Assembly: GCF_036507355.1 (NCBI RefSeq)
Contig: NZ_AP027879.1
DNA from: Escherichia coli
GTDB lineage: Bacteria; Pseudomonadota; Gammaproteobacteria; Enterobacterales; Enterobacteriaceae
Strand: one strand, 5' to 3'
Length of the DNA stretch: 47,389 nt
A program made the translations under genes and the position numbers. Numbering within the stretch: position 1 is the stretch's first letter; each line of letters begins with the position of its first letter. The notes beneath the pieces were generated by a model. The model was not told the origin of the DNA and ran no database searches. It saw nothing but the letters and a program-made list of their open reading frames with translations. Shown piece by piece: positions 1-29,683 of the stretch.

Positions 1-66
1 CTATTAGCCACACTCGCAAGCCAAGCAGAGTCGGCTTAAATTCTATTGAGTGTTGTAACTACTAGC

Positions 67-705
67 TTAAATGGCGTTCAACTTCCTCGATTTTACAGCA
101 CTACTAATTGTCCCTCGACTACAGGCCATAATTTTCTGTACCTGACTCCAGGAACTACCGCTATCGAGCAACCGATTGATGGCATCGTATCGCTCCTTAT
201 TGGCCTGTCGCCCCTTATACCTTCCCTCTTTTTGAGCTTTACTAATCCCCTGTCTTTGACGTTCCCGGCGTTGTTCATAGTCACGACGTGCCACAGCAGC
301 CAGCATGTCGAGCAACATATCGTTAATTGCAGCAAACATGCGGCTATCAAAATCATGGCTTCCTGAAGCTATCCATGTTGTCGGAACGTTGATGGCCATC
401 ACTCGTATATCTTTCTGCCTAATCAATTTTTTCAAGCTGTTCCAGTCTTCGCCAGTCAGACGTGAGAGCCGATCTACATCCTCAATTAAGAGAATATCGT
501 TGTGCCGGCAGTCTTTGAGCAACCTGAATAATTCAGGCCGGTCAAGCCTCGAACCAGATTCATTCTCAATGTAGTAATTGCAAATGTTCAGCCCACGTTC
601 CTCGGCAAAACTATCAATCGCAGCCAGAGCGCGAGAAGCATCTTGTTCAGATGTAGAGGCGCGTAAATAAGCCCGGACAAAGCCTTTCGGTACAGTTTGA
701 GTCAC
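67..705 (-). CDS. Serine recombinase / multimer-resolution resolvase (ResD-like)
   Basis: 212-aa ORF with N-terminal catalytic motif YLRASTSEQ (active-site Ser) and resolvase-like C-terminus. Confidence 0.8.
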   Translation of the reverse strand: MTQTVPKGFVRAYLRASTSEQDASRALAAIDSFAEERGLNICNYYIENESGSRLDRPELFRLLKDCRHNDILLIEDVDRLSRLTGEDWNSLKKLIRQKDIRVMAINVPTTWIASGSHDFDSRMFAAINDMLLDMLAAVARRDYEQRRERQRQGISKAQKEGRYKGRQANKERYDAINRLLDSGSSWSQVQKIMACSRGTISSAVKSRKLNAI

Positions 706-844
706 AGTGTAGAACCAGTTCGATTTAGGTAGTTAAAGCATAACTATACAGTACCCGTTATGGGTGGTATTTAAAAGGCATACTCAAAAAGAACCAGAAA
801 ACAGACCTCCGACCATAAAGTGACAATGTCACACAGAAATTTAC

Positions 845-1072
845 AACATAAAGATGATGTAAAGACGGTCTCAGATTTACCACGTAAAGCCACTATAAAT
901 ACACACAAATCTTTACACAATAAAGATAACATAAATACAAGCTTATCTTTATTTGTGCTTTACATGGTAAATCATGTGTAATATAAAGACACTGTAAAGA
1001 CAAAATAATCTTTACGAACAACACACAATGTAAAGATAAGACAGTCTTTACATAATCTTTACGTCATAAAGA
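845..1072. repeat. Array of about 14 TCTTTAC/GTAAAGA hexamer-core repeats in both orientations upstream of parA; candidate centromere or operator
   Basis: Motif recurs every 10-25 bp across about 230 bp immediately 5' of the ParA start. Confidence 0.5.
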
Positions 1073-1085
1073 GAGGAATTCTGAA

Positions 1086-1748
1086 ATGGGTAAAATCTTG
1101 CTTGTCGTATCAGATAAGGGTGGTGTAGGCAAAAGCACCTACGTGGCTAACACAGGCTCAATGCTGGTCAATAAAGGTAAGTCGGTAATTATCCTCAAGA
1201 CAGATAAAAACCACGATCTGTTGAGCTGGAACGAAAAGCGGACAGATAACGGCTTACTCACTATCCCGGTTCACGCAGCTTACGGAAACGTCAGCAATGA
1301 AATTAAGCGACTTAGTAAGCTGTGTGAAGTCCTCATTGTCGATTGCCCCGGCCACGACAGCCAGGAGTTCCGTAGCGCCCTGACAGTATCAGATATCGTG
1401 GTAACACTGGTTAAGCCGTCCTCTGATTTCGAAAGCGAAACTCTGACCAGTGTTACAGAGAAAATCCGCACCGCTCAGAAAGCTAACGCAGCCCTGGAAC
1501 CGTGGGTGCTGTTCACCAGAATCAACTCAGCGAAACCCCGCCACAGAAAAGCGGCCATTGATCTGGATAAATTACTGCGTTCGGACAACATCTGGATTCA
1601 ACCTCTTAAAACCCGGATATCCGAGCTGGATGTGTATGAAAGCGCCTGTAATGAAGGGGCAGGGGTACATGACGTTAGCCGGGCATCAAGCCTTTCAACA
1701 GCGAAAGCACAGATTGAACTAGTGGCGCAGGAAATTGGAATTTTATAG
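1086..1748 (+). CDS. parA: ParA/ParF-family partition ATPase (small type Ib)
   Basis: 220 aa; deviant Walker A KGGVGKST near N-terminus. Confidence 0.85.
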   Translation: MGKILLVVSDKGGVGKSTYVANTGSMLVNKGKSVIILKTDKNHDLLSWNEKRTDNGLLTIPVHAAYGNVSNEIKRLSKLCEVLIVDCPGHDSQEFRSALTVSDIVVTLVKPSSDFESETLTSVTEKIRTAQKANAALEPWVLFTRINSAKPRHRKAAIDLDKLLRSDNIWIQPLKTRISELDVYESACNEGAGVHDVSRASSLSTAKAQIELVAQEIGIL

Positions 1749-1767
1749 TAATATCAATACCATCTAT

Positions 1768-1786
1768 AAATCTTTACATTGTAAAG
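1768..1786. promoter_or_regulatory. 19-bp palindrome ATCTTTACATTGTAAAGAT between parA and the RHH gene
   Basis: Perfect inverted repeat with the same TCTTTAC core as the upstream array. Confidence 0.35.
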
Positions 1787-1845
1787 ATAATATAAAGATA
1801 GTATGATATTTACTATTAATGCATACCGTACAAGGGGAAATTGTC

Positions 1846-2127
1846 ATGGCTTTAAAACTAAACCGTCCGAACATCGATGAATCTCAGCAACCAGCAACAA
1901 ACGCAGAAACCGCGCGTTTTATCTCCGGCGCTACCAGAGCGCCTGTAGTGGGTAAACCAAAGTTGATGAACTTCAGACTTTCAGCCCATTTTGAGGACAT
2001 ACTGGAAGCTGAAGCTATCAGAACAGGGCAGAGCAAAACAACCGTTCTCAAAGCGGCGCTGGCGATGTACAACAGCCAGGATGAAAACATAAAGAATCAC
2101 TGGTTGCTTGAGTCTGCAAAATTCTAA
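1846..2127 (+). CDS. Small ribbon-helix-helix protein, ParG-like partition or repressor protein
   Basis: About 93 aa from MALKLN (purine-rich stretch upstream); C-terminal KPKLMNFRLSAHFEDILEAEAIRTGQSKTTVLKAAL resembles an RHH fold; sits directly after parA. Confidence 0.55.
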   Translation: MALKLNRPNIDESQQPATNAETARFISGATRAPVVGKPKLMNFRLSAHFEDILEAEAIRTGQSKTTVLKAALAMYNSQDENIKNHWLLESAKF

Positions 2128-2151
2128 CCATAGAAGCATGGATGAAAATCT

Positions 2152-3129
2152 ATGAGATATTTAACCGAATTGATCTGTGACCTCTACAGGTTGACAGATC
2201 ACCATAAACTGACCACAGCAACGTTTAAAAATCTTGCTGATATTAAGTTATTTAAACCTACAGCAGATGCAGACACCATATTGCAGCTTGAAAATATATT
2301 TAGCGAATACTCACTGAGATATATTGACAAGGATCTGGCTGAAATTCTGAGCAACTTAATAACTACAGATAAGAAACACTCTCTGGACTTCGATTTTAAC
2401 AAAATACAATCTCTGACTGACTCGAAAAGTTTCGGTTGTGGATGGAGCAAGGTAATAAATGGTAGTTGGTTCAAAGATCTTTATTCTTGGGGAGAGGGGA
2501 TGTATCCTGCCGAAAATCTGAAAGCTGAAAATATTTTAGACTGGAAAGATAATATATGGCACATTGAGCATGAAGGTTTCCCCCCACGCCCCCCTATTAA
2601 TGTTAAATATTATTCTTGGTTTGACCGATATGTAGCTTCAAACAGTGGTGGCTCACATCATGCAGCAATGGTTGTATATCAATCAGTCAGAGACGGGTTA
2701 GAGTATAAAAGAGAAGCTGTTATTAAACAACTGAGTATAGACCCAGGCACTGTTGAAATACTTGATAAGAATTACTATTCATTCATATTCCAGATCAAAA
2801 CCCTTAATAAAGAAACTAGAATTTATACATCTGAATACGAGTTTACAGATGCTTTAAAAGACTTTGGACAAAACAGACATACCATACTTAAACCTGTTAA
2901 TTACGTTTCCAACATAAAATTAGTATTTATTCCAAAAGATGCATTAAAAACAAATAGCGAGACATTCCGCAACTGGTTTCATTCTGCAATTAGCTGCGGA
3001 AAAATAATATCACTCCCTGATTATCTGAAAAATCCAGCACATTATCATACACTTCATTACTCACATGAAGTAGACTCAATAACACTTGGCGACCCAAGCA
3101 GAAAATTTAAACTGAAAGGAGATTCTTAG
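2152..3129 (+). CDS. Hypothetical protein, 325 aa, AT-rich, no recognised family
   Basis: Long uninterrupted ORF; no motif I can assign. Confidence 0.6.
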   Translation: MRYLTELICDLYRLTDHHKLTTATFKNLADIKLFKPTADADTILQLENIFSEYSLRYIDKDLAEILSNLITTDKKHSLDFDFNKIQSLTDSKSFGCGWSKVINGSWFKDLYSWGEGMYPAENLKAENILDWKDNIWHIEHEGFPPRPPINVKYYSWFDRYVASNSGGSHHAAMVVYQSVRDGLEYKREAVIKQLSIDPGTVEILDKNYYSFIFQIKTLNKETRIYTSEYEFTDALKDFGQNRHTILKPVNYVSNIKLVFIPKDALKTNSETFRNWFHSAISCGKIISLPDYLKNPAHYHTLHYSHEVDSITLGDPSRKFKLKGDS

Positions 3130-3482
3130 CTTTTATATAAAAAATCAATGTTATCATTTGTCAGAAGATCAGCGAGGGTAATACATTCAAGAACCACAAT
3201 ATTTGTTCCTTCCAACAAACTGGCATCAAGTATCTTATCGAAGCTGATAATCATCATTGGCTTGCGTTGTGTTAAATCAAAGATTACCAATGGAAGTATT
3301 ACACTGTTAATTAATTCAAACTCTTTAAAGAAAGCATCAGTGCCATACTCACTGGCTGGAAAAAGAATCTCAATTAATCTCACACCATAAAAAACATGGT
3401 AGTTTTCTTTAAGGTTATCCTTTAAAATATTAACAGCCTTAGTATATTTTTCGTTAATAAACTCTCTCACCTGATATTCCAT
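3126..3482 (-). CDS. Hypothetical protein, about 119 aa, convergent with the 325-aa ORF
   Basis: Likely start MEYQVREF at 3482 preceded by GGAG; ORF track extends to 3551; stop codons of the two genes overlap in ttag at 3126-3129. Confidence 0.5.
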   Translation of the reverse strand: MEYQVREFINEKYTKAVNILKDNLKENYHVFYGVRLIEILFPASEYGTDAFFKEFELINSVILPLVIFDLTQRKPMMIISFDKILDASLLEGTNIVVLECITLADLLTNDNIDFLYKS

Positions 3483-3618
3483 AAAATTCTCCGACAAGAA
3501 CCGACTGTAGGTCACCGGGCAAACGTTGCAGAATGGCGTCAGAGACGTCATTTTGCGGCGTTTGCCCTATCCTGCATCGCAGTGAAAAGGCAGGGACTGG
3601 CATAACTGCTGAGTAGCA

Positions 3619-3882
3619 TCATTGCTGGCTTATCTCGCTACTGTTCTCGGTGCTTTCGTCCGCAGGTTCGGGAACAAGTAACTTGTGCCAAGGCATAGTT
3701 TTGTTGAGCAGCTCCATCAGAGGCTCAGCCAGCAGTCCCAAAATCCAGGTTGCCGTAATCACCGGTATAGTCAGATTTTGTGGCGTCCATAACTGGTGAT
3801 CGAGATGATACCAAGTGATGACACACAAAATACCACCCAGCCAGAATACAGCCCATTTAAACGCACCAAGAATGGCTAACAC
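3619..3882 (-). CDS. Small hydrophobic membrane protein; possibly the C-terminal part of a gene interrupted by an in-frame TGA
   Basis: 87-aa hydrophobic ORF with GTG start; an in-frame upstream ORF (ATG at 4065, MAKIYQFPQGEERAKF, 41 codons) ends at TGA 3942-3940. Confidence 0.45.
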   Translation of the reverse strand: MLAILGAFKWAVFWLGGILCVITWYHLDHQLWTPQNLTIPVITATWILGLLAEPLMELLNKTMPWHKLLVPEPADESTENSSEISQQ

Positions 3883-4104
3883 AAAAACAAAGATAAAATG
3901 TAAAACACTCGCGACAAGAAGACGAAGATAAAACCATCCTCAGCCAAGCCACTTAACAAAAGTGCTCCCTGTTTTCACTGCAAAACGTTTCTTACGCTCC
4001 CTGGCAATTTCTTTCCTGAATTTAGCACGTTCTTCCCCCTGAGGGAATTGATAGATTTTAGCCATGAGCTACCTCATTTCGATCTCAAAACGAAGTTTAT
4101 GCAA

Positions 4105-4941
4105 TTATCCTCTGAAACCGTATGGTATTCTGATATCTAAGCCCTCACTTTCTTTATCTATTTTATAAGAAAACCTTAGCTTTGATGCTCTTCTTGCGAC
4201 TCTCTCAACGATTTTAACTTCGAGATGATTAATCTCTGTATATTGATTTATTTTTTCAATATTTTTTTGCAGAAAAACCTTATTAAAATCCTTAAAATTC
4301 TGATAAAGGTAAACTTTTTCGCCATTATCTATTCTGAATAATTCAAGTTCATCCTTTAATACATCTACTTCAATGTCGAAAAATGTCTTTTTACCACTGC
4401 TGTATTGTTTCCTGATAAACTGATAAAGCATATTTGAATTTTGATCAGCGAGTCTTACAGACGATATCAAAACCTGAGTAGTGTAAGAATCCTTTAACAT
4501 CGTGATATATGGCTCAATGACATGTGAAAAAGCAATATCAATATATCCTTCACTTTCAACATAATCACAAAACGCAGTCAGGTTCATAAGCCTGACTGCA
4601 TCAGAAGGTAATTTACCTCTCTTCTTCGTATGTCCAGAGCTTTGATTGCCCTGAGGTGTGAGAAGTTGATTTCGAGGAATGCGAATAACACTGGCCTGAA
4701 GTTCTTCTGCCCCCTCTTTCAACTGCCGGTAAGCACCTGTTACATCAATATCAGCGATAAATGCATATTCCCGAGCCGTAATACGAAAGGTTGCCCCCTC
4801 AGATAACTCTTCACGTGAATCAATCTGCGCCATAGCCATAAACAAAATTCTTCTGGCAGACAAAGGCAACGATGAGAATGTGCTGTTAATTTCATTTCTG
4901 TGGCGAATTTTTGTTTTCTTTGTAACGCTCAGTAAGTTCAT
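4105..4941 (-). CDS. repB: Rep_3-family iteron-plasmid replication initiator
   Basis: 278 aa; family assigned from overall resemblance to iteron-plasmid initiators; iterons and DnaA boxes lie directly upstream. Confidence 0.85.
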   Translation of the reverse strand: MNLLSVTKKTKIRHRNEINSTFSSLPLSARRILFMAMAQIDSREELSEGATFRITAREYAFIADIDVTGAYRQLKEGAEELQASVIRIPRNQLLTPQGNQSSGHTKKRGKLPSDAVRLMNLTAFCDYVESEGYIDIAFSHVIEPYITMLKDSYTTQVLISSVRLADQNSNMLYQFIRKQYSSGKKTFFDIEVDVLKDELELFRIDNGEKVYLYQNFKDFNKVFLQKNIEKINQYTEINHLEVKIVERVARRASKLRFSYKIDKESEGLDIRIPYGFRG

Positions 4942-5193
4942 ACATTACCTGTGGTTTTTAAGTTCTGATGGTGAAATCATAACCACAAAGGCGGAAATAT
5001 GTAAAGTGGTTTATCCACCTTATGTATTTCCACCAAAACACGGATCACATGAAAGAATTTTTATCATTTATATTCAATATGATAGAAATGCGCAGGTATC
5101 CACCTTTTAACGTCATACGTTAAATTAGAGCACTATAAAGAACTAAAGAAATGAAGATACAAAGATACGAATATCTGAATAAAAACAGAAAAA

Positions 5194-5313
5194 TGCGTAC
5201 CCATCCACCTTTCAGTGCGTACCCATCCACCTTTCAGTGCGCAGCCATCCACCTTTCATGAAAATTACAGTGCGTACCCATCCACCTTTCAGTGCGTACC
5301 CATCCACCTTTCA
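5194..5313. repeat. Five 22-bp iterons (TGCGTACCCATCCACCTTTCAG) of the Rep_3 replicon
   Basis: Five near-identical direct repeats, two plus one plus two with an 11-bp spacer. Confidence 0.75.
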
Positions 5314-5484
5314 TTTTGAGGCGACAAAAAACAACACCTATCTTAATGAAATTATTGATAAAAAAGCTGGCACAATGTTTGCAGAATAAGTTAAAGTAAG
5401 TTAAAGATCTTAAAGTAGATCTACCGATCTACATTTAAGATCTTAAAAACAAGAAGTTTAATAAGCAAAAAAACACAAAAAATC

Positions 5485-5532
5485 TGTGGATAACTCTGCT
5501 CAAAACAAAAAATTCACAGCGCCTGTGGATAA
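5485..5532. promoter_or_regulatory. Two DnaA boxes (TGTGGATAA) beside an AT-rich stretch; part of oriV
   Basis: TTATCCACA consensus at 5485-5493 and 5524-5532; AT-rich region 5340-5480. Confidence 0.5.
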
Positions 5533-6174
5533 CTTTGCGTAAACCCGGAGGACAGATCACTCTGAACCAAGACAACCACACATAAAAACAATATGCTCAT
5601 TTTTTAACCACTGTGCGTAAGTGCCTAATGTAATCCCTGTGCTATTCCGCTTCCTCGCTCACTAACTCGCTACACTCGGTCGTTCGGCTGCGGCGAGCGG
5701 TGTCTCCTTTCTCAAAACCAGAAGAGTTCAGCTCATACGATCCGTTGATTGATCCTTTTTGGATCTTTCACTGAGAAGCCCTGAATCGCTTTCTGCCGCT
5801 TCGTTCGATACAACCATGGTGAAACCATGCGAAATCGAAAAAATCGCTCAGAATGCGATACAGCGCGTTTTAGAGGGTATTTACAAAACAGTCGTTGCCT
5901 TGAGGAAATTTTGATCAAGATTGAACTCCTATCCGGATCATGGCAACAGATCACAGCAACAAGGCCGCTAAAAAGCGTTGAGCGGCGTTAAAAACCGTTA
6001 AACCGTAGCTGACTACAACGAAACGGGAAAAAACGCTCAGAACGCGTTACAGAGCGTTTTAAGGCGATGTCGGAAAGAGCCATATCTCACCTGTTCTGAT
6101 GTTTTTCTCAACATAAGCACTTTTAAGAGTGCTTTTAAAGATGCTATTATGCCAATGAGACAAGCGGAGGGCTT

Positions 6175-6426
6175 ATGAGCTATCAAATTCTGACAACTAC
6201 AGCGGCCAGTATTACTGACCTGAAAAAAAATCCTATGGGAACCGTAGCTGAAGGTGAAGGGGACGCTGTTGCGATCCTGAACCGAAACGAACCGGCGTTC
6301 TATTGCGTTCCACCAAAACTTTACGCCTACTATCGGGAACTCGCTGAAGATGCTGAGTTAAACGCTGTTGCTGATGAGCGCATGAAAAACCCGGAAATTG
6401 TGAAGGTTAACCTGGATGACCTATGA
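6175..6426 (+). CDS. stbD: Phd/YefM-family antitoxin
   Basis: 83 aa; overlaps the downstream toxin gene in typical TA arrangement. Confidence 0.85.
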   Translation: MSYQILTTTAASITDLKKNPMGTVAEGEGDAVAILNRNEPAFYCVPPKLYAYYRELAEDAELNAVADERMKNPEIVKVNLDDL

Positions 6427-6697
6427 ACTGGCTTTTGACCGTAGAGCACTGAAGGAATGGCAGAAACTCGGCCACACCATCCGTGAACAATTCAAAAAGA
6501 AACTGGCAGAACGGCTGGAAAATCCACGCGTACCCGCAGCCCGGTTACATGGTCATGCTGATCGCTATAAAATCAAACTTCGTGCATCTGGCTACAGACT
6601 TGTATACCAAGTCATTGATGAGAAAGTCGTTTTACTCGTTATTGCCGTTGGAAGAAGGGAAAGCAGCGAAGTCTATCAGATCGCAGATTTGCGCTAA
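6416..6697 (+). CDS. stbE: RelE/ParE-family toxin
   Basis: 93 aa; 11-bp overlap with stbD. Confidence 0.85.
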   Translation: MTYELAFDRRALKEWQKLGHTIREQFKKKLAERLENPRVPAARLHGHADRYKIKLRASGYRLVYQVIDEKVVLLVIAVGRRESSEVYQIADLR

Positions 6698-6771
6698 GAT
6701 TAATCATCAAATGATTGGTGATGCTGCCAACTTACTGATTTAGTGTATGATGGTGTTTTTGAGGTGCTCCA

Positions 6772-7047
6772 GTGGCTTCTGTTTCTATCAGCTGTCCCTC
6801 CTGTTCAGCTACTGACGGGGTGGTGCGTAACGGCAAAAGCACCGCCGGACATCAGCGCTATCTCTGCTCTCACTGCCGTAAAACATGGCAACTGCAGTTC
6901 ACTTACACCGCTTCTCAACCCGGTACGCACCAGAAAATCATTGATATGGCCATGAATGGCGTTGGATGCCGGGCAACAGCCCGCATTATGGGCGTTGGCC
7001 TCAACACGATTTTACGTCACTTAAAAAACTCAGGCCGCAGTCGGTAA
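6772..7047 (+). CDS. insA: IS1 InsA
   Basis: 91-aa zinc-finger protein [16 protein letters not shown]. Confidence 0.85.
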
Positions 7048-7469
7048 CCTCGCGCATACAGCCGGGCAGTGACGTCATCGTCTGCGCGGAAATGGACGAA
7101 CAGTGGGGCTATGTCGGGGCTAAATCGCGCCAGCGCTGGCTGTTTTACGCGTATGACAGGCTCCGGAAGACGGTTGTTGCGCACGTATTCGGTGAACGCA
7201 CTATGGCGACGCTGGGGCGTCTTATGAGCCTGCTGTCACCCTTTGACGTGGTGATATGGATGACGGATGGCTGGCCGCTGTATGAATCCCGCCTGAAGGG
7301 AAAGCTGCACGTAATCAGCAAGCGATATACGCAGCGAATTGAGCGGCATAACCTGAATCTGAGGCAGCACCTGGCACGGCTGGGACGGAAGTCGCTGTCG
7401 TTCTCAAAATCGGTGGAGCTGCATGACAAAGTCATCGGGCATTATCTGAACATAAAACACTATCAGTAA
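6966..7469 (+). CDS. insB: IS1 InsB frame (expressed as InsAB by -1 frameshift)
   Basis: InsB-like translation in the -1 frame overlapping the insA 3' end. Confidence 0.8.
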
Positions 7470-7484
7470 GTTGGAGTCATTACC

Positions 7485-7787
7485 AACCAGTTCACCACCT
7501 ACTCGCTCCGCGATTGTGGCAGTCTTCGAAATCCCCGGACGATCCGCCTTTATGAAAGTCTTGCTCAATTCAAATCTTCAGGCTTATGGGTTACTACTCA
7601 TGCTTGGTTAAATGACCGTTTCGTCTTACCGGAATCCCAGCAGAAGAACTTGGCAGAGTTGAAACGATCTTTCCTTGATCCTGCACTCAAGCAGATAAAT
7701 GAGAAAACACCTTTACTTGCTAAGTATAGTATTGATGATTCAGGAAAATTTCTGTTCTCAATAATTGATAAGCAAAATCCCGTCTGA
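7485..7787 (+). pseudogene. repA: 3' remnant of a second replication initiator gene, 5'-truncated by IS1
   Basis: Open frame from the IS1 junction encoding a Rep-like C-terminus (WLNDRFVLPESQQKNLAELKRSF...) followed by 37-bp iterons. Confidence 0.5.
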
Positions 7788-7837
7788 CATAAATCAGCAC
7801 ACATGAGCCTGTCATTTGACAAATTTTTGTCATGAAG

Positions 7838-8370
7838 ATGGGCGGATTTCCACACAGCACCGGCGCCCGGTAAGGTGGGCGGATTTCCACACAGCACCGG
7901 CGCCCGGCAAGGTGGGCGGATTCCCACACGGCACCGGCGCGCGGCAAGGTGGGCGGATTCCCACACGGCACCGGCGCGCGGCAAGGTGGGCGGATTTCCA
8001 CACAGCACCGGCGCCCGGCAAGGTGGGCGGATTCCCACACGGCACCGGCGCGCGGCAAGGTGGGCGGATTCCCACACGGCACCGGCGCGCGGCAAGGTGG
8101 GCGGATTTCCACACAGCACCGGCGCCCGGCAAGGTGGGCGGATTCCCACACGGCACCGGCGCGCGGCAAGGTGGGCGGATTCCCACACGGCACCGGCGCG
8201 CGGCAAGGTGGGCGGATTTCCACACAGCACCGGCGCCCGGCAAGGTGGGCGGATTCCCACACGGCACCGGCGCGCGGCAAGGTGGGCGGATTCCCACACG
8301 GCACCGGCGCGCGGCAAGGTGGGCGGATTTCCACACGGCACCGGCGCCCGGCAAGGTGGGCCGATTCCCA
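7838..8370. repeat. About 14 tandem 37-bp iterons (GGGCGGATTYCCACACRGCACCGGCGCSCGGCAAGGT); IncN-like origin array
   Basis: Head-to-tail direct repeats with two alternating variants; no spacers. Confidence 0.75.
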
Positions 8371-22369: not shown

Positions 22370-24193
22370 ACTGGCTGGCAATGTCTAGCAACGGCAGGCA
22401 TTTCGGCTGAGGGTAAAAGAACTTTCCGCTAAGCGATAGACTGTATGTAAACACAGTATTGCAAGGACGCGGAACATGCCTCATGTGGCGGCCAGGACGG
22501 CCAGCCGGGATCGGGATACTGGTCGTTACCAGAGCCACCGACCCGAGCAAACCCTTCTCTATCAGATCGTTGACGAGTATTACCCGGCATTCGCTGCGCT
22601 TATGGCAGAGCAGGGAAAGGAATTGCCGGGCTATGTGCAACGGGAATTTGAAGAATTTCTCCAATGCGGGCGGCTGGAGCATGGCTTTCTACGGGTTCGC
22701 TGCGAGTCTTGCCACGCCGAGCACCTGGTCGCTTTCAGCTGTAAGCGTCGCGGTTTCTGCCCGAGCTGTGGGGCGCGGCGGATGGCCGAAAGTGCCGCCT
22801 TGCTGGTTGATGAAGTACTGCCTGAACAACCCATGCGTCAGTGGGTGTTGAGCTTCCCGTTTCAGCTGCGTTTCCTGTTTGCCAGCCGGCCCGAGATCAT
22901 GGGGTGGGTGCTGGGCATCGTTTACCGCGTCATTGCCACGCACCTGGTCAAGAAAGCGGGCCATACCCACCAAGTGGCCAAGACGGGCGCGGTCACCCTG
23001 ATCCAGCGTTTTGGATCGGCGCTCAATCTGAATGTTCACTTCCACATGCTGTTTCTCGACGGTGTGTATGTCGAGCAATCCCACGGCTCAGCGCGTTTCC
23101 GCTGGGTCAAGGCGCCGACCAGCCCAGAGCTCACCCAGCTGACGCACACCATCGCCCACCGGGTGGGTCGCTATCTGGAACGGCAAGGCCTGCTGGAACG
23201 GGATGTCGAAAACAGCTATCTGGCCTCGGATGCGGTGGATGACGACCCGATGACACCCCTGCTGGGGCACTCGATCACTTACCGTATCGCTGTCGGTTCA
23301 CAGGCGGGGCGAAAGGTGTTCACTTTGCAAACTCTGCCGACCAGTGGTGATCCGTTCGGTGACGGGATTGGCAAGGTAGCCGGGTCCAGCCTGCACGCCG
23401 GCGTGGCGGCCAGGGCCGATGAACGCAAGAAGCTCGAACGGCTGTGCCGGTACATCAGCCGCCCGGCGGTATCCGAGAAGCGGCTGTCGTTAACACGAGG
23501 CGGCAACGTGCGCTACCAGCTCAAGACGCCGTACCGGGACGGCACCACGCACGTCATTTTCGAACCATTGGATTTCATTGCAAGGCTGGCCGCCCTGGTA
23601 CCGAAGCCCAGAGTCAACCTAACCCGCTTCCACGGGGTGTTCGCACCCAACAGTCGGCACCGGGCGTTGGTCACGCCGGCAAAACGGGGCAGGGGCAACA
23701 AGGTCAGGGTGGCTGATGAACCGGCAACACCAGCACAACGGCGAGCGTCGATGACATGGGCGCAACGGCTCAAGCGTGTTTTCAATATCGACATCGAGAC
23801 CTGCAGCGGCTGCGGCGGCGCCATGAAAGTCATCGCCTGCATTGAAGACCCTATAGTGATCAAGCAGATCCTTGATCACCTGAAGCACAAAGCCGAAACC
23901 AGCGGGACCAGGGCGTTACCCGAAAGCCGGGCGCCACCGGCTGAGCTGCTCCTGGGTCTGTTTGACTGACGAGCCTGAAGGCCAACGATACCAATCAAAA
24001 TGCTGCGTTCACAGCGCCGCGGCAGGGATCCGCCGTGCTGGTTGTCGGAAAAGGAGCCGCTAGTGGGAAAGAGGAGGGTAAATTTTCAGCGTTGCTGGCT
24101 CCCCGTCAGCCGGATTGGGTTGCATCGCAGGGGTGTCGAAAGAGTCAACTGCGGTCCAAAGCTGTTGGACTTGGGTGAAAAGGGCGTTTATTC
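22370..24193 (+). mobile_element. ISCR2 (IS91-like rolling-circle element); boundaries approximate
   Basis: Contains the ISCR2 transposase; right side ends at an IS26 fragment. Confidence 0.5.
22476..23969 (+). CDS. ISCR2 rolling-circle transposase
   Basis: 497 aa with HUH/zinc-binding motifs (CESCHAEHLVAFSCKRRGFCPSCGARRM). Confidence 0.9.
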   Translation: MPHVAARTASRDRDTGRYQSHRPEQTLLYQIVDEYYPAFAALMAEQGKELPGYVQREFEEFLQCGRLEHGFLRVRCESCHAEHLVAFSCKRRGFCPSCGARRMAESAALLVDEVLPEQPMRQWVLSFPFQLRFLFASRPEIMGWVLGIVYRVIATHLVKKAGHTHQVAKTGAVTLIQRFGSALNLNVHFHMLFLDGVYVEQSHGSARFRWVKAPTSPELTQLTHTIAHRVGRYLERQGLLERDVENSYLASDAVDDDPMTPLLGHSITYRIAVGSQAGRKVFTLQTLPTSGDPFGDGIGKVAGSSLHAGVAARADERKKLERLCRYISRPAVSEKRLSLTRGGNVRYQLKTPYRDGTTHVIFEPLDFIARLAALVPKPRVNLTRFHGVFAPNSRHRALVTPAKRGRGNKVRVADEPATPAQRRASMTWAQRLKRVFNIDIETCSGCGGAMKVIACIEDPIVIKQILDHLKHKAETSGTRALPESRAPPAELLLGLFD

Positions 24194-24447
24194 GGCACTG
24201 TTGCAAATAGTCGGTGGTGATAAACTTATCATCCCCTTTTGCTGATGGAGCTGCACATGAACCCATTCAAAGGCCGGCATTTTCAGCGTGACATCATTCT
24301 GTGGGCCGTACGCTGGTACTGCAAATACGGCATCAGTTACCGTGAGCTGCAGGAGATGCTGGCTGAACGCGGAGTGAATGTCGATCACTCCACGATTTAC
24401 CGCTGGGTTCAGCGTTATGCGCCTGAAATGGAAAAACGGCTGCGCTG
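24194..24447 (+). mobile_element. IS26 fragment (first about 254 bp including IRL and tnp 5' end)
   Basis: Identical to the IS26 left end; interrupted by inverted complete IS26 copy c. Confidence 0.8.
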
Positions 24448-24448
24448 G

Positions 24449-25268
24449 GGCACTGTTGCAAAGTTAGCGATGAGGCAGCCTTTTGTCTTATTCAAAGGCC
24501 TTACATTTCAAAAACTCTGCTTACCAGGCGCATTTCGCCCAGGGGATCACCATAATAAAATGCTGAGGCCTGGCCTTTGCGTAGTGCACGCATCACCTCA
24601 ATACCTTTGATGGTGGCGTAAGCCGTCTTCATGGATTTAAATCCCAGCGTGGCGTTGATTATCCGTTTCAGTTTGCCATGATCGCATTCAATCACGTTGT
24701 TCCGGTACTTAATCTGTCGGTGTTCAACGTCAGACGGGCACCGGCCTTCGCGTTTGAGCAGAGCAAGCGCGCGACCATAGGCGGGCGCTTTATCCGTGTT
24801 GATGAATCGTGGGATCTGCCACTTCTTCACGTTGTTGAGGATTTTACCCAGAAACCGGTATGCAGCTTTGCTGTTACGACGGGAGGAGAGATAAAAATCG
24901 ACAGTGCGGCCCCGGCTGTCGACGGCCCGGTACAGATACGCCCAGCGGCCATTGACCTTCACGTAGGTTTCATCCATGTGCCACGGGCAAAGATCGGAAG
25001 GGTTACGCCAGTACCAGCGCAGCCGTTTTTCCATTTCAGGCGCATAACGCTGAACCCAGCGGTAAATCGTGGAGTGATCGACATTCACTCCGCGTTCAGC
25101 CAGCATCTCCTGCAGCTCACGGTAACTGATGCCGTATTTGCAGTACCAGCGTACGGCCCACAGAATGATGTCACGCTGAAAATGCCGGCCTTTGAATGGG
25201 TTCATGTGCAGCTCCATCAGCAAAAGGGGATGATAAGTTTATCACCACCGACTATTTGCAACAGTGCC
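24449..25268 (-). mobile_element. IS26, complete (copy c)
   Basis: 14-bp IRs, 820 bp. Confidence 0.95.
24501..25205 (-). CDS. tnp26: IS26 transposase Tnp26, N at position 184
   Basis: Same protein as copies a and b. Confidence 0.95.
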
Positions 25269-25600
25269 CCGGTAACTATCAACTTGAGTCCAACCCGGAA
25301 AGACACGACAAAACGCCACTGGCAGCAGCCATTAGTAACAGGAGTGCACGAGAAGATAGATTAAGAGGTCTTGAAGTAGAGGCCTGACTGCGGCTACACT
25401 GAAAGAACAGTTTTGGTAATGGCGGTCTCGTGAACCCTGTTACCGGGTTAAGCAGTTCCCCAACTGACTTAACCTTCGAACAAACCGCCTCCCCAGGCGG
25501 TTTTTTCGTTTACAGAGCAAGAGATTACGATTCATTGAAAAGGATCTCAAGAAGATCCTTTGTAGATTACTATCAATTAATCTTCCGAACATGACACCAG
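25269..25600 (+). other. ColE1-type replicon remnant (RNAI/RNAII control region); origin proper deleted by IS26
   Basis: Colinear with the pBR322-type ori region from CGGTAACTATC..TTGAGTCCAACCCGG through AAAGGATCTCAAGAAGATCCTTTG. Confidence 0.5.
25407..25506 (+). ncRNA. RNAI-like antisense RNA of the ColE1-type remnant
   Basis: Position matches RNAI in ColE1-type origins; ends in hairpin plus T-run CCGCCTCCCCAGGCGGTTTTTT. Confidence 0.4.
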
Positions 25601-25846
25601 TCACTGTTGATTACGGTTAAACCGCTCCGTAACAGGTTTCCCTCGTATTGGTGACTTGCAGCACCAAAGAAGCAAAAAAGATAAATATATCTACTTATTG
25701 AGAGATGATATATTTATTTCCAAAATGCTACAGATACATCATCATGAAACGGATCACCGCAAACAGGTTACTCGCCTGGGGATTCCCTTTCGACCCGAGC
25801 ATCCGTATGATACTCATGCTCGATTATTATTATTATAGAAGCCCCC

Positions 25847-26662
25847 ATGAATAAATCGCTCATCATTTTCGGCATCGTCAACATAACCTCGGACAGTTTC
25901 TCCGATGGAGGCCGGTATCTGGCGCCAGACGCAGCCATTGCGCAGGCGCGTAAGCTGATGGCCGAGGGGGCAGATGTGATCGACCTCGGTCCGGCATCCA
26001 GCAATCCCGACGCCGCGCCTGTTTCGTCCGACACAGAAATCGCGCGTATCGCGCCGGTGCTGGACGCGCTCAAGGCAGATGGCATTCCCGTCTCGCTCGA
26101 CAGTTATCAACCCGCGACGCAAGCCTATGCCTTGTCGCGTGGTGTGGCCTATCTCAATGATATTCGCGGTTTTCCAGACGCTGCGTTCTATCCGCAATTG
26201 GCGAAATCATCTGCCAAACTCGTCGTTATGCATTCGGTGCAAGACGGGCAGGCAGATCGGCGCGAGGCACCCGCTGGCGACATCATGGATCACATTGCGG
26301 CGTTCTTTGACGCGCGCATCGCGGCGCTGACGGGTGCCGGTATCAAACGCAACCGCCTTGTCCTTGATCCCGGCATGGGGTTTTTTCTGGGGGCTGCTCC
26401 CGAAACCTCGCTCTCGGTGCTGGCGCGGTTCGATGAATTGCGGCTGCGCTTCGATTTGCCGGTGCTTCTGTCTGTTTCGCGCAAATCCTTTCTGCGCGCG
26501 CTCACAGGCCGTGGTCCGGGGGATGTCGGGGCCGCGACACTCGCTGCAGAGCTTGCCGCCGCCGCAGGTGGAGCTGACTTCATCCGCACACACGAGCCGC
26601 GCCCCTTGCGCGACGGGCTGGCGGTATTGGCGGCGCTGAAAGAAACCGCAAGAATTCGTTAA
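25847..26662 (+). CDS. sul2: Sulfonamide-resistant dihydropteroate synthase Sul2
   Basis: 271 aa starting MNKSLIIFGIVNITSDSFSDGG. Confidence 0.95.
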   Translation: MNKSLIIFGIVNITSDSFSDGGRYLAPDAAIAQARKLMAEGADVIDLGPASSNPDAAPVSSDTEIARIAPVLDALKADGIPVSLDSYQPATQAYALSRGVAYLNDIRGFPDAAFYPQLAKSSAKLVVMHSVQDGQADRREAPAGDIMDHIAAFFDARIAALTGAGIKRNRLVLDPGMGFFLGAAPETSLSVLARFDELRLRFDLPVLLSVSRKSFLRALTGRGPGDVGAATLAAELAAAAGGADFIRTHEPRPLRDGLAVLAALKETARIR

Positions 26663-26722
26663 CTGCACATTCGGGATATTTCTCTATATTCGCGCTTCAT
26701 CAGAAAACTGAAGGAACCTCCA

Positions 26723-27526
26723 TTGAATCGAACTAATATTTTTTTTGGTAAATCGCATTCTGACTGGTTGCCTGTCAGAGGCGGAGAATCTGGTGATTTT
26801 GTTTTTCGACGTGGTGACGGGCATGCCTTCGCGAAAATCGCACCTGCTTCCCGCCGCGGTGAGCTCGCTGGAGAGCGTGACCGCCTCATTTGGCTCAAAG
26901 GTCGAGGTGTGGCTTGCCCCGAGGTCATCAACTGGCAGGAGGAACAGGAGGGTGCATGCTTGGTGATAACGGCAATTCCGGGAGTACCGGCGGCTGATCT
27001 GTCTGGAGCGGATTTGCTCAAAGCGTGGCCGTCAATGGGGCAGCAACTTGGCGCTGTTCACAGCCTATCGGTTGATCAATGTCCGTTTGAGCGCAGGCTG
27101 TCGCGAATGTTCGGACGCGCCGTTGATGTGGTGTCCCGCAATGCCGTCAATCCCGACTTCTTACCGGACGAGGACAAGAGTACGCCGCAGCTCGATCTTT
27201 TGGCTCGTGTCGAACGAGAGCTACCGGTGCGGCTCGACCAAGAGCGCACCGATATGGTTGTTTGCCATGGTGATCCCTGCATGCCGAACTTCATGGTGGA
27301 CCCTAAAACTCTTCAATGCACGGGTCTGATCGACCTTGGGCGGCTCGGAACAGCAGATCGCTATGCCGATTTGGCACTCATGATTGCTAACGCCGAAGAG
27401 AACTGGGCAGCGCCAGATGAAGCAGAGCGCGCCTTCGCTGTCCTATTCAATGTATTGGGGATCGAAGCCCCCGACCGCGAACGCCTTGCCTTCTATCTGC
27501 GATTGGACCCTCTGACTTGGGGTTGA
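26723..27526 (+). CDS. strA: Aminoglycoside 3''-phosphotransferase APH(3'')-Ib
   Basis: 267 aa; classic sul2-strA-strB order. Confidence 0.95.
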   Translation: MNRTNIFFGKSHSDWLPVRGGESGDFVFRRGDGHAFAKIAPASRRGELAGERDRLIWLKGRGVACPEVINWQEEQEGACLVITAIPGVPAADLSGADLLKAWPSMGQQLGAVHSLSVDQCPFERRLSRMFGRAVDVVSRNAVNPDFLPDEDKSTPQLDLLARVERELPVRLDQERTDMVVCHGDPCMPNFMVDPKTLQCTGLIDLGRLGTADRYADLALMIANAEENWAAPDEAERAFAVLFNVLGIEAPDRERLAFYLRLDPLTWG

Positions 27527-28362
27527 TGTTCATGCCGCCTGTTTTTCCTGCTCATTGGCACGTTTCGCAACCTGTTCTCATTGCGGACACCTTTTCCAGC
27601 CTCGTTTGGAAAGTTTCATTGCCAGACGGGACTCCTGCAATCGTCAAGGGATTGAAACCTATAAAAGACATTGCTGATGAACTGCGCGGGGCCGACTATC
27701 TGGTATGGCGCAATGGGAGGGGAGCAGTCCGGTTGCTCGGTCGTGAGAACAATCTGATGTTGCTCGAATATGCCGGGGAGCGAATGCTCTCTCACATCGT
27801 TGCCGAGCACGGCGACTACCAGGCGACCGAAATTGCAGCGGAACTAATGGCGAAGCTGTATGCCGCATCTGAGGAACCCCTGCCTTCTGCCCTTCTCCCG
27901 ATCCGGGATCGCTTTGCAGCTTTGTTTCAGCGGGCGCGCGATGATCAAAACGCAGGTTGTCAAACTGACTACGTCCACGCGGCGATTATAGCCGATCAAA
28001 TGATGAGCAATGCCTCGGAACTGCGTGGGCTACATGGCGATCTGCATCATGAAAACATCATGTTCTCCAGTCGCGGCTGGCTGGTGATAGATCCCGTCGG
28101 TCTGGTCGGTGAAGTGGGCTTTGGCGCCGCCAATATGTTCTACGATCCGGCTGACAGAGACGACCTTTGTCTCGATCCTAGACGCATTGCACAGATGGCG
28201 GACGCATTCTCTCGTGCGCTGGACGTCGATCCGCGTCGCCTGCTCGACCAGGCGTACGCTTATGGGTGCCTTTCCGCAGCTTGGAACGCGGATGGAGAAG
28301 AGGAGCAACGCGATCTAGCTATCGCGGCCGCGATCAAGCAGGTGCGACAGACGTCATACTAG
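27526..28362 (+). CDS. strB: Aminoglycoside 6-phosphotransferase APH(6)-Id
   Basis: 278 aa from MFMPPVFPAHW; 1-bp overlap with the strA stop. Confidence 0.95.
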   Translation: MFMPPVFPAHWHVSQPVLIADTFSSLVWKVSLPDGTPAIVKGLKPIKDIADELRGADYLVWRNGRGAVRLLGRENNLMLLEYAGERMLSHIVAEHGDYQATEIAAELMAKLYAASEEPLPSALLPIRDRFAALFQRARDDQNAGCQTDYVHAAIIADQMMSNASELRGLHGDLHHENIMFSSRGWLVIDPVGLVGEVGFGAANMFYDPADRDDLCLDPRRIAQMADAFSRALDVDPRRLLDQAYAYGCLSAAWNADGEEEQRDLAIAAAIKQVRQTSY

Positions 28363-28387
28363 ATATCAAGCGACTTCTCCTATCCCC

Positions 28388-28468
28388 TGGGAACACATCA
28401 ATCTCACCGGAGAATATCGCTGGCCAAAGCCTTAGCGTAGGATTCCGCCCCTTCCCGCAAACGACCCC
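28388..28468. repeat. Tn5393-type 81-bp terminal inverted repeat downstream of strB
   Basis: Reverse complement begins GGGGTCGTTTGCGGGAAGGGG. Confidence 0.5.
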
Positions 28469-28717
28469 TTTCTGGCGCGTTTGCAGGGCCATAGACGGCC
28501 GCCAGCCCAGCGGCGAGGGCAACCAGCCCGGTGAGCGTCGGAAAGGCGCTGGAAGCCCCGTAGCGACGCGGAGAGGGGCGAGACAAGCCAAGGGCGCAGG
28601 CTCGATGCGCAGCACGACATAGCCGGTTCTCGCAAGGACGAGAATTTCCCTGCGGTGCCCCTCAAGTGTCAATGAAAGTTTCCAACGCGAGCCATTCGCG
28701 AGAGCCTTGAGTCCACG
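28469..28717. other. Short non-coding segment joining the strB/IR end to the tet module; origin uncertain (contains GCCCCTCAAGTGTCA)
   Basis: No ORF; ends exactly where tetR-upstream sequence begins without a Tn1721 IR. Confidence 0.3.
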
Positions 28718-29032
28718 CTAGATCTATCTCATCTGCGCAAGGCAGAACGTGAAGACGGCCGCCCTGGACCTCGCCCGCGAGCGCCAGGCGCACGAGGCCG
28801 GCGCGCGGACCCGCGCCACGGCCCACGAGCGGACGCCGCAGCAGGAGCGCCAGAAGGCCGCCAGAGAGGCCGAGCGCGGCCGTGAGGCTTGGACGCTAGG
28901 GCAGGGCATGAAAAAGCCCGTAGCGGGCTGCTACGGGCGTCTGACGCGGTGGAAAGGGGGAGGGGATGTTGTCTACATGGCTCTGCTGTAGTGAGTGGGT
29001 TGCGCTCCGGCAGCGGTCCTGAGCGGTCCTGA

Positions 29033-29683
29033 TCAATCGTCACCCTTTCTCGGTCCTTCAACGTTCCTGACAACGAGCCTCCTTTTCGCCAATCCATCGA
29101 CAATCACCGCGAGTCCCTGCTCGAACGCTGCGTCCGGACGGGCTTCGTCGAAGGCGTCTATCGCGGCCCGCAACAGCGGCGAGAGCGGAGCCTGTTCAAC
29201 GGTGCCGCCGCGCTCGCCGGCATCGCTGTCGCCGGCCTGCTCCTCAAGCACGGCCCCAACAGTGAAGTAGCTGATTGTCATCAGCGCATTGACGGCGTCC
29301 CCGGCCGAAAAACCCGCCTCGCAGAGGAAGCGAAGCTGCGCGTCGGCCGTTTCCATCTGCGGTGCGCCCGGTCGCGTGCCGGAATGGATGCGCGCGCCAT
29401 CGCGGTAGGCGAGCAGCGCCTGCCTGAAGCTGCGGGCATTCCCGATCAGAAATGAGCGCCAGTCGTCGTCGGCTCTCGGCACCGAATGCGTATGATTCTC
29501 CGCCAGCATGGCTTCGGCCAGTGCGTCGAGCAGCGCCCGCTTGTTCCTGAAGTGCCAGTAAAGCGCCGGCTGCTGAACCCCCAACCGTTCCGCCAGTTTG
29601 CGTGTCGTCAGACCGTCTACGCCGACCTCGTTCAACAGGTCCAGGGCGGCACGGATCACTGTATTCGGCTGCAACTTTGTCAT
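29033..29683 (-). CDS. tetR: Tetracycline repressor TetR, class A (variant copy)
   Basis: 216 aa from MTKLQPNTVIRAALDLL; differs from the second copy at two residues. Confidence 0.95.
   Translation of the reverse strand: MTKLQPNTVIRAALDLLNEVGVDGLTTRKLAERLGVQQPALYWHFRNKRALLDALAEAMLAENHTHSVPRADDDWRSFLIGNARSFRQALLAYRDGARIHSGTRPGAPQMETADAQLRFLCEAGFSAGDAVNALMTISYFTVGAVLEEQAGDSDAGERGGTVEQAPLSPLLRAAIDAFDEARPDAAFEQGLAVIVDGLAKRRLVVRNVEGPRKGDD

Follow-up and report, generated by a model that had tools for sequence, protein, structure and literature searches.

Two convergent genes of an IncX1 plasmid backbone: ddp3 and a gene of the DUF6685 family

The convergent genes and their place in the plasmid

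The DNA considered in this study is a stretch of 47,389 nucleotides (nt) from Escherichia coli (contig NZ_AP027879.1 of assembly GCF_036507355.1), referred to here as the window, whose positions are used throughout. It contains two convergent open reading frames (ORFs) that a preliminary description, made from the sequence alone, had singled out as a pair of genes of unknown function. One, of 325 amino acids (aa), runs from 2152 to 3129 on the plus strand and encodes a protein of the DUF6685 family. The other, on the minus strand from 3126 to 3551, encodes 141 aa if read from its first ATG and 118 aa if read from ATG 3482, and by its sequence it is ddp3 (also called taxD), a transfer-accessory gene of IncX plasmids, encoding DNA distortion polypeptide 3 (DDP3). 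I will argue that these are probably two independent genes of an IncX1 backbone that happen to stand side by side, the DUF6685 gene being without an assigned function.

The tail-to-tail layout, with stop codons overlapping at 3126-3129, is as the preliminary description had it. Within GATTCTTAGC, the plus-strand gene ends in TAG at 3127-3129 and the minus-strand gene in TTA (TAA on the minus strand) at 3126-3128, the overlap being the TTAG at 3126-3129. Both ORFs are, to judge from sequence comparison, genuine genes, since hundreds of plasmid records contain either one at 100% identity and the ratio of nonsynonymous to synonymous divergence (dN/dS) relative to plasmid pOU1114 is 0.23 for the DUF6685 gene and 0.23 for ddp3.

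Both proteins were sought by tblastn in 72,556 plasmids. The records with DDP3 numbered 1967 and those with DUF6685 469, and at 80% identity or better the numbers were 405 and 400; on these counts, the co-inheritance of the two genes is confined to a single lineage, classical IncX1. In other plasmids, the space from the par genes to ddp3 is occupied differently: by two small hypothetical genes in IncX3, by a gene for a 206-aa hypothetical protein following ParA-ParG-CopG in pRHB04-C08_4, by genes for membrane proteins and hypothetical proteins in pEC00704_6, and by IS100 in a Salmonella plasmid. The suspicion in the preliminary description that plasmids carry cargo at this place was therefore sound, the DUF6685 gene lying in a variable slot between the par module and ddp3. 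The same description had put the pair forward as a unit and had named the absence of a conserved unit from other replicons as something that would speak against it, and this absence is what was found, each gene occurring alone. The two genes do not form a two-gene system, since their counts differ, since other genes fill the slot in other IncX plasmids, and since DUF6685 occurs by itself. Nor do they have the form of a toxin-antitoxin or addiction pair, co-oriented, co-transcribed and co-occurring across replicons.

Both genes had been described as much more AT-rich than the neighboring par, rep and resistance genes. This holds with respect to the par genes, the GC content being 35.5% in the DUF6685 gene and 31.4% in ddp3, as against 48.4% in parA and 46.3% in yafA (stbDE has about 46.5% and the whole window 52.6%). 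It fails with respect to rep, because pir is equally AT-rich (36.1% GC, 0.315 at third codon positions), and AT-richness therefore does not separate the pair from the replicon. In an alignment of the window with pOU1114, the middle of the DUF6685 gene (2400-3000) is 88.5-89.5% identical and its flanks 96-100%. The synonymous divergence (dS) amounts to 0.26 in the DUF6685 gene, 0.12 in ddp3, 0.03 in parA and 0.06 in pir, and so is 4-8 times as high in the DUF6685 gene as in parA and pir. This pattern suggests a patch of allelic exchange by recombination within IncX1, or else of faster turnover, under purifying selection.

Bases 1000-5200 of the window (4.2 kb) match many E. coli plasmids of type IncX1, pCP53-38k for example, with 100% identity, and by this identity the window's backbone is that of an IncX1 plasmid. 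The order of the backbone is resolvase, parA, yafA, the 325-aa gene, ddp3, the remnants of bis, pir, the iterons and stbDE, and the same gene order is found in pOU1114, a complete conjugative IncX1 plasmid. The pair thus lies where the preliminary description placed it, between the partition module and the replicon, with parA and yafA on one side and the bis remnants, pir and iterons on the other.

To the left of the pair, after the resolvase gene (67..705, minus strand), parA (1086..1748, plus strand) is the first gene of the par operon and encodes a small partition ATPase of the ParF type (NCBIfam ParA_partition, E = 4.8e-27); the partitioning system of IncX1 has been given as ParFG (PMC3097218). 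Two names attached to this gene in databases were set aside: "peptidyl-arginine deiminase", in some GenBank/RefSeq records, is a mislabel of parA and does not pertain to the DUF6685 gene, and "division plane positioning ATPase MipZ", given by RefSeq to the IncX ATPase of the ParA/ParF type, is an annotation artefact. The next gene (1819..2127, plus strand; RefSeq start 1846) is named yafA in pECTm80 and encodes a small protein annotated as a member of the CopG family (ribbon-helix-helix), other plasmid records calling it "CopG family transcriptional regulator" or "hypothetical". YafA has no match in NCBIfam and is presumed to be the ParG-like partner of ParA; in IncX3, which lacks DUF6685, yafA still adjoins parA.

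To the right of the pair, bis (3619..4065, minus strand) is split into an N-terminal ORF of 41 aa (3940..4065) and a C-terminal ORF of 87 aa (3619..3882), which in BLASTP correspond to residues 1-38 (58% identity) and 63-144 (62% identity) of the intact 147-aa IncX3 protein. On this alignment, bis in the window looks like a frameshifted or internally disrupted gene. The identical IncX1 plasmids have no coding sequence at this position in the PLSDB tables, which omit pseudogenes. Beyond bis are the replication initiator gene pir/repX (4105..4941, minus strand; annotated as RepB/Rep_3-type), the 22-bp iterons (5086-5311) and stbDE (6175..6697). A search of Rfam at E ≤ 0.1 found no RNA feature in positions 1-7000.

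Neither taxA nor taxC was seen in the backbone stretch from 1 to 9 kb, and the IncX1 backbone in the window may be a truncated, non-self-transmissible remnant or may be part of a cointegrate. Directly after a copy of IS1 lies a tandem array (7835-8370) of 14.5 copies of the 37-bp unit AAGGTGGGCGGATTCCCACACGGCACCGGCGCGCGGC, 94% matching and about 70% GC, which yields long spurious ORFs in every frame. The resistance region (11871-41053) is made of repeats: one of about 820 bp in five full-length copies (one inverted relative to the other four) and a partial copy of 255 bp, and a separate pair of 818 bp.

ddp3 and the replicon-proximal oriT repeat

The small protein matches the NCBIfam equivalog DDP3 (NF041452) over profile positions 1-116 of 116 with a score of 169.7 bits (E = 2.4e-50), above the curated cutoff of 140 bits, and the RefSeq annotation of the gene is likewise DDP3. 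It follows that the statement of the preliminary description, that no family motif could be recognized in either protein, does not apply to the smaller one, and neither does the claim of unknown function, as ddp3/taxD has been studied in R6K. The gene is known as a DNA-transfer auxiliary gene adjoining the second origin of transfer (oriT), usually after pir and bis (PMC3332091; PMC3402527; PMC4222815), and PMC3332091 cites work in which DDP3 reportedly takes part with DDP1/TaxA and DDP2/TaxC in distorting or nicking the origin in R6K. The DDP3/TaxD of R6K (IncX2) is of the same length class as the window's protein (118 aa) and is encoded at the same site, by the replicon-proximal oriT repeat after pir and bis. 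There is no difference of substance between the two, the window's protein being the IncX1 allele, and the order pir, bis, repeat, ddp3 is shared by the window, pOU1114 and IncX3.

The repeat bears on where ddp3 begins. The only long inverted repeat of pOU1114 has arms of 110 nt, 98% complementary, one at 23789-23898 beside taxA/ddp1 (the alpha arm) and the other at 29347-29456 beside ddp3 (the beta arm). A three-way alignment of both arms with the window places the beta arm of the IncX long inverted repeat (oriT-beta) at 3477..3586, terminating in GGAGAATTTTATG. This sequence comprises a ribosome-binding site (RBS) and ATG, those of ddp3 at the beta arm and those of taxA/ddp1 at the alpha arm. 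Because a repeat-borne RBS and ATG are common to ddp3 and taxA, the true start of ddp3 is most likely ATG 3482, giving the 118-aa form annotated by RefSeq (3126..3482, minus strand). The 23 further codons of the 141-aa ORF (3483..3551, minus strand) lie within the inverted repeat, are repeat sequence, and for that reason are most likely untranslated. By the same alignment, two unrelated genes, ddp3 and taxA, share a translation start, and they probably share a promoter too.

The beta arm also contains CCTATCCTG/CATCG at 3566-3579 on the plus strand (the slash marks the position of the nick), the single match within the window. I take it to be the nick site, nic, on the assumption that the MOBP nick consensus YATCCTG/Y, which the motif fits, applies here. 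Of the two arms the window has the beta arm only, and neither the motif nor the repeat was found a second time anywhere in it. If the motif is nic, then the plus strand would enter the recipient from 3575 rightwards, with bis and pir in the lead and ddp3 and the 325-aa gene at the rear.

In pOU1114, with the nick orientation so taken, transfer from either oriT would run into the 5.4-kb segment that separates the arms (23900-29350). Within this segment, the small hypothetical genes and stbDE all point to oriT-alpha and pir points to oriT-beta, and the incoming single strand could perhaps serve as template for each set of genes, no matter which oriT fires.

The preliminary description had speculated that a D...FDK pattern in the small protein might be a minimal nuclease-like core. 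The idea of a nuclease core has something to it; the motif does not. An AlphaFold2 model of DDP3, built from 15 homologues, has a predicted local distance difference test score (pLDDT) of 84.8 and shows a predicted restriction-endonuclease-like core of the PD-(D/E)xK type, in the order alpha-beta-beta-beta-alpha-beta. The D...FDK pattern corresponds to D70...F82-D83-K84, and it is not the catalytic motif; K84 varies among K, Q, E, L and P across homologues.

Where the catalytic residues should have been can be judged by comparison with DUF2726 (PF10881), a PD-(D/E)XK family; the structures 1cw0, 3hrl and 3r3p have been grouped under "VSR, DUF559, DUF2726" (Steczkiewicz et al. 2012, PMC3424549). 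DUF2726 is the best Pfam match of DDP3, below threshold (E = 0.098), and a gene at the position of ddp3 in an IncX-like plasmid of Proteus, whose product is 41% identical to DDP3, carries the Pfam DUF2726 domain. An hhalign comparison of DDP3 with 20 DUF2726 proteins gave E = 0.0012 over 91 columns, with the blocks VxL(G/S)EIL and INS in common. The invariant residues of DUF2726 are D101, E116, Q118, G121-H122 and K134, the acidic pair being the D of RVD and the E of VEYQG. In the alignment, the catalytic D101 is opposite P65, invariant in DDP3, and E116 is opposite Gly/Ser 81, while the GH and K blocks have no counterpart in DDP3. DDP3 is also about 50 residues shorter than the DUF2726 set and is without that set's N-terminal hydrophobic segment. 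No sequence link between DDP3 and solved structures was found.

Since the catalytic positions have been lost from what is predicted to be a PD-(D/E)xK fold of the Vsr/DUF2726 type, DDP3 is most likely a nuclease-derived protein that binds DNA without cleaving it, having lost the catalytic Asp and Glu. A noncleaving protein fits an accessory that "distorts" the DNA of the origin and oriT. DDP3 would then bind the repeat and help the relaxosome of TaxA and TaxC to distort and nick it, the part reported for it in R6K. The gene belongs to the "mob2" module, its RBS and start lying inside the beta arm as those of taxA/ddp1 lie at the alpha arm.

A related arrangement was seen in pNY2385-KPC, an IncX-like plasmid of Citrobacter, where (1514-2404) ddp3 is immediately followed by a second, longer DUF2726 gene of 172 aa. 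The product of the latter matches 64 homologues carrying PF10881, and its conserved acidic residues are intact. From their sequences, the two genes look like a pair of paralogues, one of which may have remained active as a nuclease.

The DUF6685 protein

With respect to the 325-aa protein, the verdict of unknown function stands: no paper in the library searched mentions DUF6685, the paper on Sfx of R6K does not deal with this region, and no relative was found among solved structures. The gene appears in pECTm80 as orf15, "conserved hypothetical" (PMC3332091). RefSeq calls the product a DUF6685 family protein, and the names in the sources of the sequence clusters are either "hypothetical" or "DUF6685", save for one stray label of "DUF2971" on the UniRef cluster of a Proteus subfamily. 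The match to Pfam DUF6685 (PF20390) has an E-value of 2.6e-7 and covers only residues 153-265. Of 37 aligned relatives, 33 match PF20390 (E ≤ 0.001), and a Pfam scan of all 37 found DUF6685 as the sole match, with no second family recurring. The window protein has no match in NCBIfam, and phmmer against PDB sequences gave nothing but noise.

Contigs on which the exact protein is recorded number at least 1000. An exhaustive profile search found just 227 representatives of the family among 1.84 billion proteins. Full-length members have about 260-380 aa, the others being fragments, and no fused domain was present among the 150 matches listed of the 227. Foldseek against AFDB50 gave 140 matches at E ≤ 0.001, from Vibrio, Pseudomonas, Legionella, Campylobacter, Neisseria, Acinetobacter and Xanthomonas, among others, with no functional annotation in the 50 listed.

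Certain residues are conserved across the superfamily, down to about 17% identity: S91 (in S91-K92-S93), G114, W156, and G167-S168-H169-H170, the last four each conserved in at least 90% of sequences. The core W..R..NSGGSHH is present in the window protein. R159 and N134 are invariant in a closer set of 35 sequences, and further N- and C-terminal blocks, PTAD (36-39) and Y303-x-H305, are conserved in the enterobacterial subfamily but not family-wide. The model of the protein is confident and places the GGSHH loop between a predicted strand (159-162) and a predicted helix (168-181), a position geometrically typical of sites that bind an anion or phosphate, and it may be such a site. The best structural matches are to ACT/ferredoxin-like ligand-binding domains (IlvA, TyrR, the NIL domain of MetN and the C-terminal domain of ArgR), and these cover a subdomain of DUF6685 of 60-100 residues only.

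Two other motif readings were tried and dropped. HIGH/KMSKS motifs would be in the wrong order. The same is true of the R-S-E motif of ADP-ribosyltransferases (R159 / S91-K-S93 / E139-x-E141), and moreover E141 is not conserved family-wide and no match to the ADP-ribosyltransferase fold was found.

Neighbors of DUF6685 and the roles of the two genes

The DUF6685 gene stands last in the parA-yafA operon, in a slot that holds different cargo in other IncX lineages, and its product is probably a stand-alone enzyme or ligand-binding protein. In the predicted structure, the Gly-rich GGSHH loop at the N-terminus of a helix, together with the SKS loop and the conserved Arg, would form a site of the phosphate/nucleotide type. 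Such a protein would serve the maintenance of the conjugative element or its establishment in the host and would not act with DDP3.

Several considerations weigh against this account. The idea of a phosphate-binding enzyme derives from a conserved motif and from the place predicted for this motif, between a strand and a helix. In the case of DDP3, the biochemical role is taken from secondary sources that cite the primary R6K studies (Flashner et al. 1996; Nunez et al. 1997). Finally, classical IncX1 plasmids nearly always hold both genes, with their stop codons overlapping, and a functional or regulatory link peculiar to that lineage is possible, for example interference by convergent transcription.

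The company that DUF6685 keeps where no ddp3 is nearby may speak to its role. In a Pectobacterium integrated element (an integrative and conjugative element, ICE), the gene adjoins one for H-NS. In Serratia plasmids, it lies between an Rpn-type gene and an AAA_13 ATPase gene, and in a Cronobacter chromosome between umuDC, itself beside a prophage end, and a reverse transcriptase gene. On metagenomic ICE-like contigs, the neighbors are Mrr_N/N6_N4 methyltransferases, RadC and SNIPE/NERD nucleases, and further metagenomic neighbors are an AcrVA2-like gene, a large ParA, and RAQPRD/DUF3262 transfer genes of the ICE type. In IncX-like plasmids of Proteus and Xenorhabdus, DUF6685 comes after topB, hns and an esterase gene of the SGNH/GDSL type (Pfam DUF459, E = 8.5e-15), kilobases away from the ddp3 homologue. 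The esterase gene (7394-8026 and 7400-7999 in the Proteus and Xenorhabdus loci) lies between hns and DUF6685 and overlaps the start of the latter, an overlap seen only there, and it may be a lineage-specific partner of DUF6685. All-against-all clustering of the ORFs around 12 DUF6685 loci gave no recurrent partner outside IncX backbones except H-NS (3-4 loci). A genome-wide locus scan with an alignment of closer members gave 5 loci, too few for statistics. DUF6685 is a rare family of single-domain, cytoplasmic proteins that occurs on conjugative plasmids and ICEs and has no conserved partner gene.

Of the more specific roles that might be proposed, the one that fares best, although I would call it a possibility and not a probability, is that of an establishment or anti-defence factor: DUF6685 would be produced early after entry into a new host and would counter restriction, CRISPR or another form of immunity, or else the SOS response. 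Members of the family occur on conjugative plasmids and ICEs, and matches to phage families in PHROG were at chance level for the window protein and 10 diverse members. Its neighbors in unrelated elements are typical of the establishment regions of plasmids and ICEs: orphan Mrr_N and N6_N4 methyltransferases (two loci), RadC, the AcrVA2-like protein (at one of the methyltransferase loci), H-NS homologues (three loci), umuDC, and the RAQPRD/DUF3262 genes of ICE type IV secretion systems. The gene itself is rich in AT, has a patchy distribution and, as noted above, has diverged more than its flanks. A more particular form of the idea, which must be regarded as rather unlikely as it stands, is that DUF6685 is an unrecognized enzyme specific to conjugative plasmids and ICEs, whose SKS/R/GGSHH site would act on a phosphate-containing substrate (a nucleotide, a signalling molecule or nucleic acid) and so protect the element or establish it in a new host.

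The preliminary description raised defence as one possible kind of cargo. That DUF6685 might be a single-gene defence against phages or plasmids, of the abortive-infection sort, is suggested by its occurrence as a single gene of low GC content in variable slots of mobile elements and by the NERD and SNIPE nucleases, the AAA_13 ATPase, the reverse transcriptase and the prophage end among its neighbors. I consider this improbable. PADLOC-DB v2 gave no family at E ≤ 1 for either window protein, and 10 diverse members of DUF6685 yielded no more than a pair of isolated matches, both marginal (E = 0.014 and 0.036), to unrelated models. The family is rare and is tied to conjugative backbones, being near fixation in IncX1 (400 of 405 records at the 80% threshold) instead of scattered in chromosomal defence islands, and no sensor, effector or nuclease-like domain is recognizable in the protein.

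There is likewise little to recommend the notion that DUF6685 is an accessory, whether regulator or adaptor, of the ParA/YafA partition and maintenance module of IncX1. The gene starts 24 nt past the yafA stop in the same orientation and so is probably co-transcribed with it, and it is kept in nearly all classical IncX1 plasmids; one metagenomic contig has a distant homologue with a ParA-type gene upstream of it, and in the Serratia plasmids the distance from DUF6685 to ParA/ParG genes is no more than 7 kb. However, IncX3 has the same parA-yafA pair without DUF6685, the gene is upstream of or kilobases from parA in the Xenorhabdus and Proteus plasmids, and no ParA was called within 8 kb on either side of the Pectobacterium and Cronobacter loci, nor is this the behavior of a component of ParFG. 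Plasmids with a truncated copy of DUF6685 (at least three) also exist.

Very improbable indeed is a functional module of ddp3 and DUF6685, whether toxin-antitoxin-like or nuclease plus partner, with expression coupled through the stop codons: the 4-nt overlap is kept in pOU1114, co-occurrence is near perfect within classical IncX1, and the genes are both AT-rich and similar in dN/dS, but about 1500 plasmids have DDP3 and no DUF6685, many other elements have DUF6685 and no DDP3, ddp3 has its place at the oriT repeat and is expressed from it as taxA is, DDP3 has lost its catalytic residues, and a convergent layout does not make an operon.

Both genes had already been catalogued, one as the DDP3 equivalog and the other as Pfam DUF6685, and no new system is presented by them. 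What emerges for this classic plasmid family is a pair of small corrections to annotation, that DDP3 has a predicted nuclease fold that has lost its catalytic residues and that ddp3 and taxA appear to take their RBS and ATG from the oriT repeat. The shared, repeat-borne start should be useful in annotating start sites, and neither correction changes the view of how the plasmids work. The resistance genes that IncX1 plasmids spread in livestock and people include qnrS, tet(X4) and bla, and giving up the two-gene reading narrows the question that these plasmids pose here to one stand-alone, well-folded orphan protein, DUF6685. Should that protein, carried by more than a thousand sequenced IncX1 resistance plasmids, prove to be an enzyme of the sort considered above, it would represent a new class of conjugation-associated factor, anti-defence or host-modulating.

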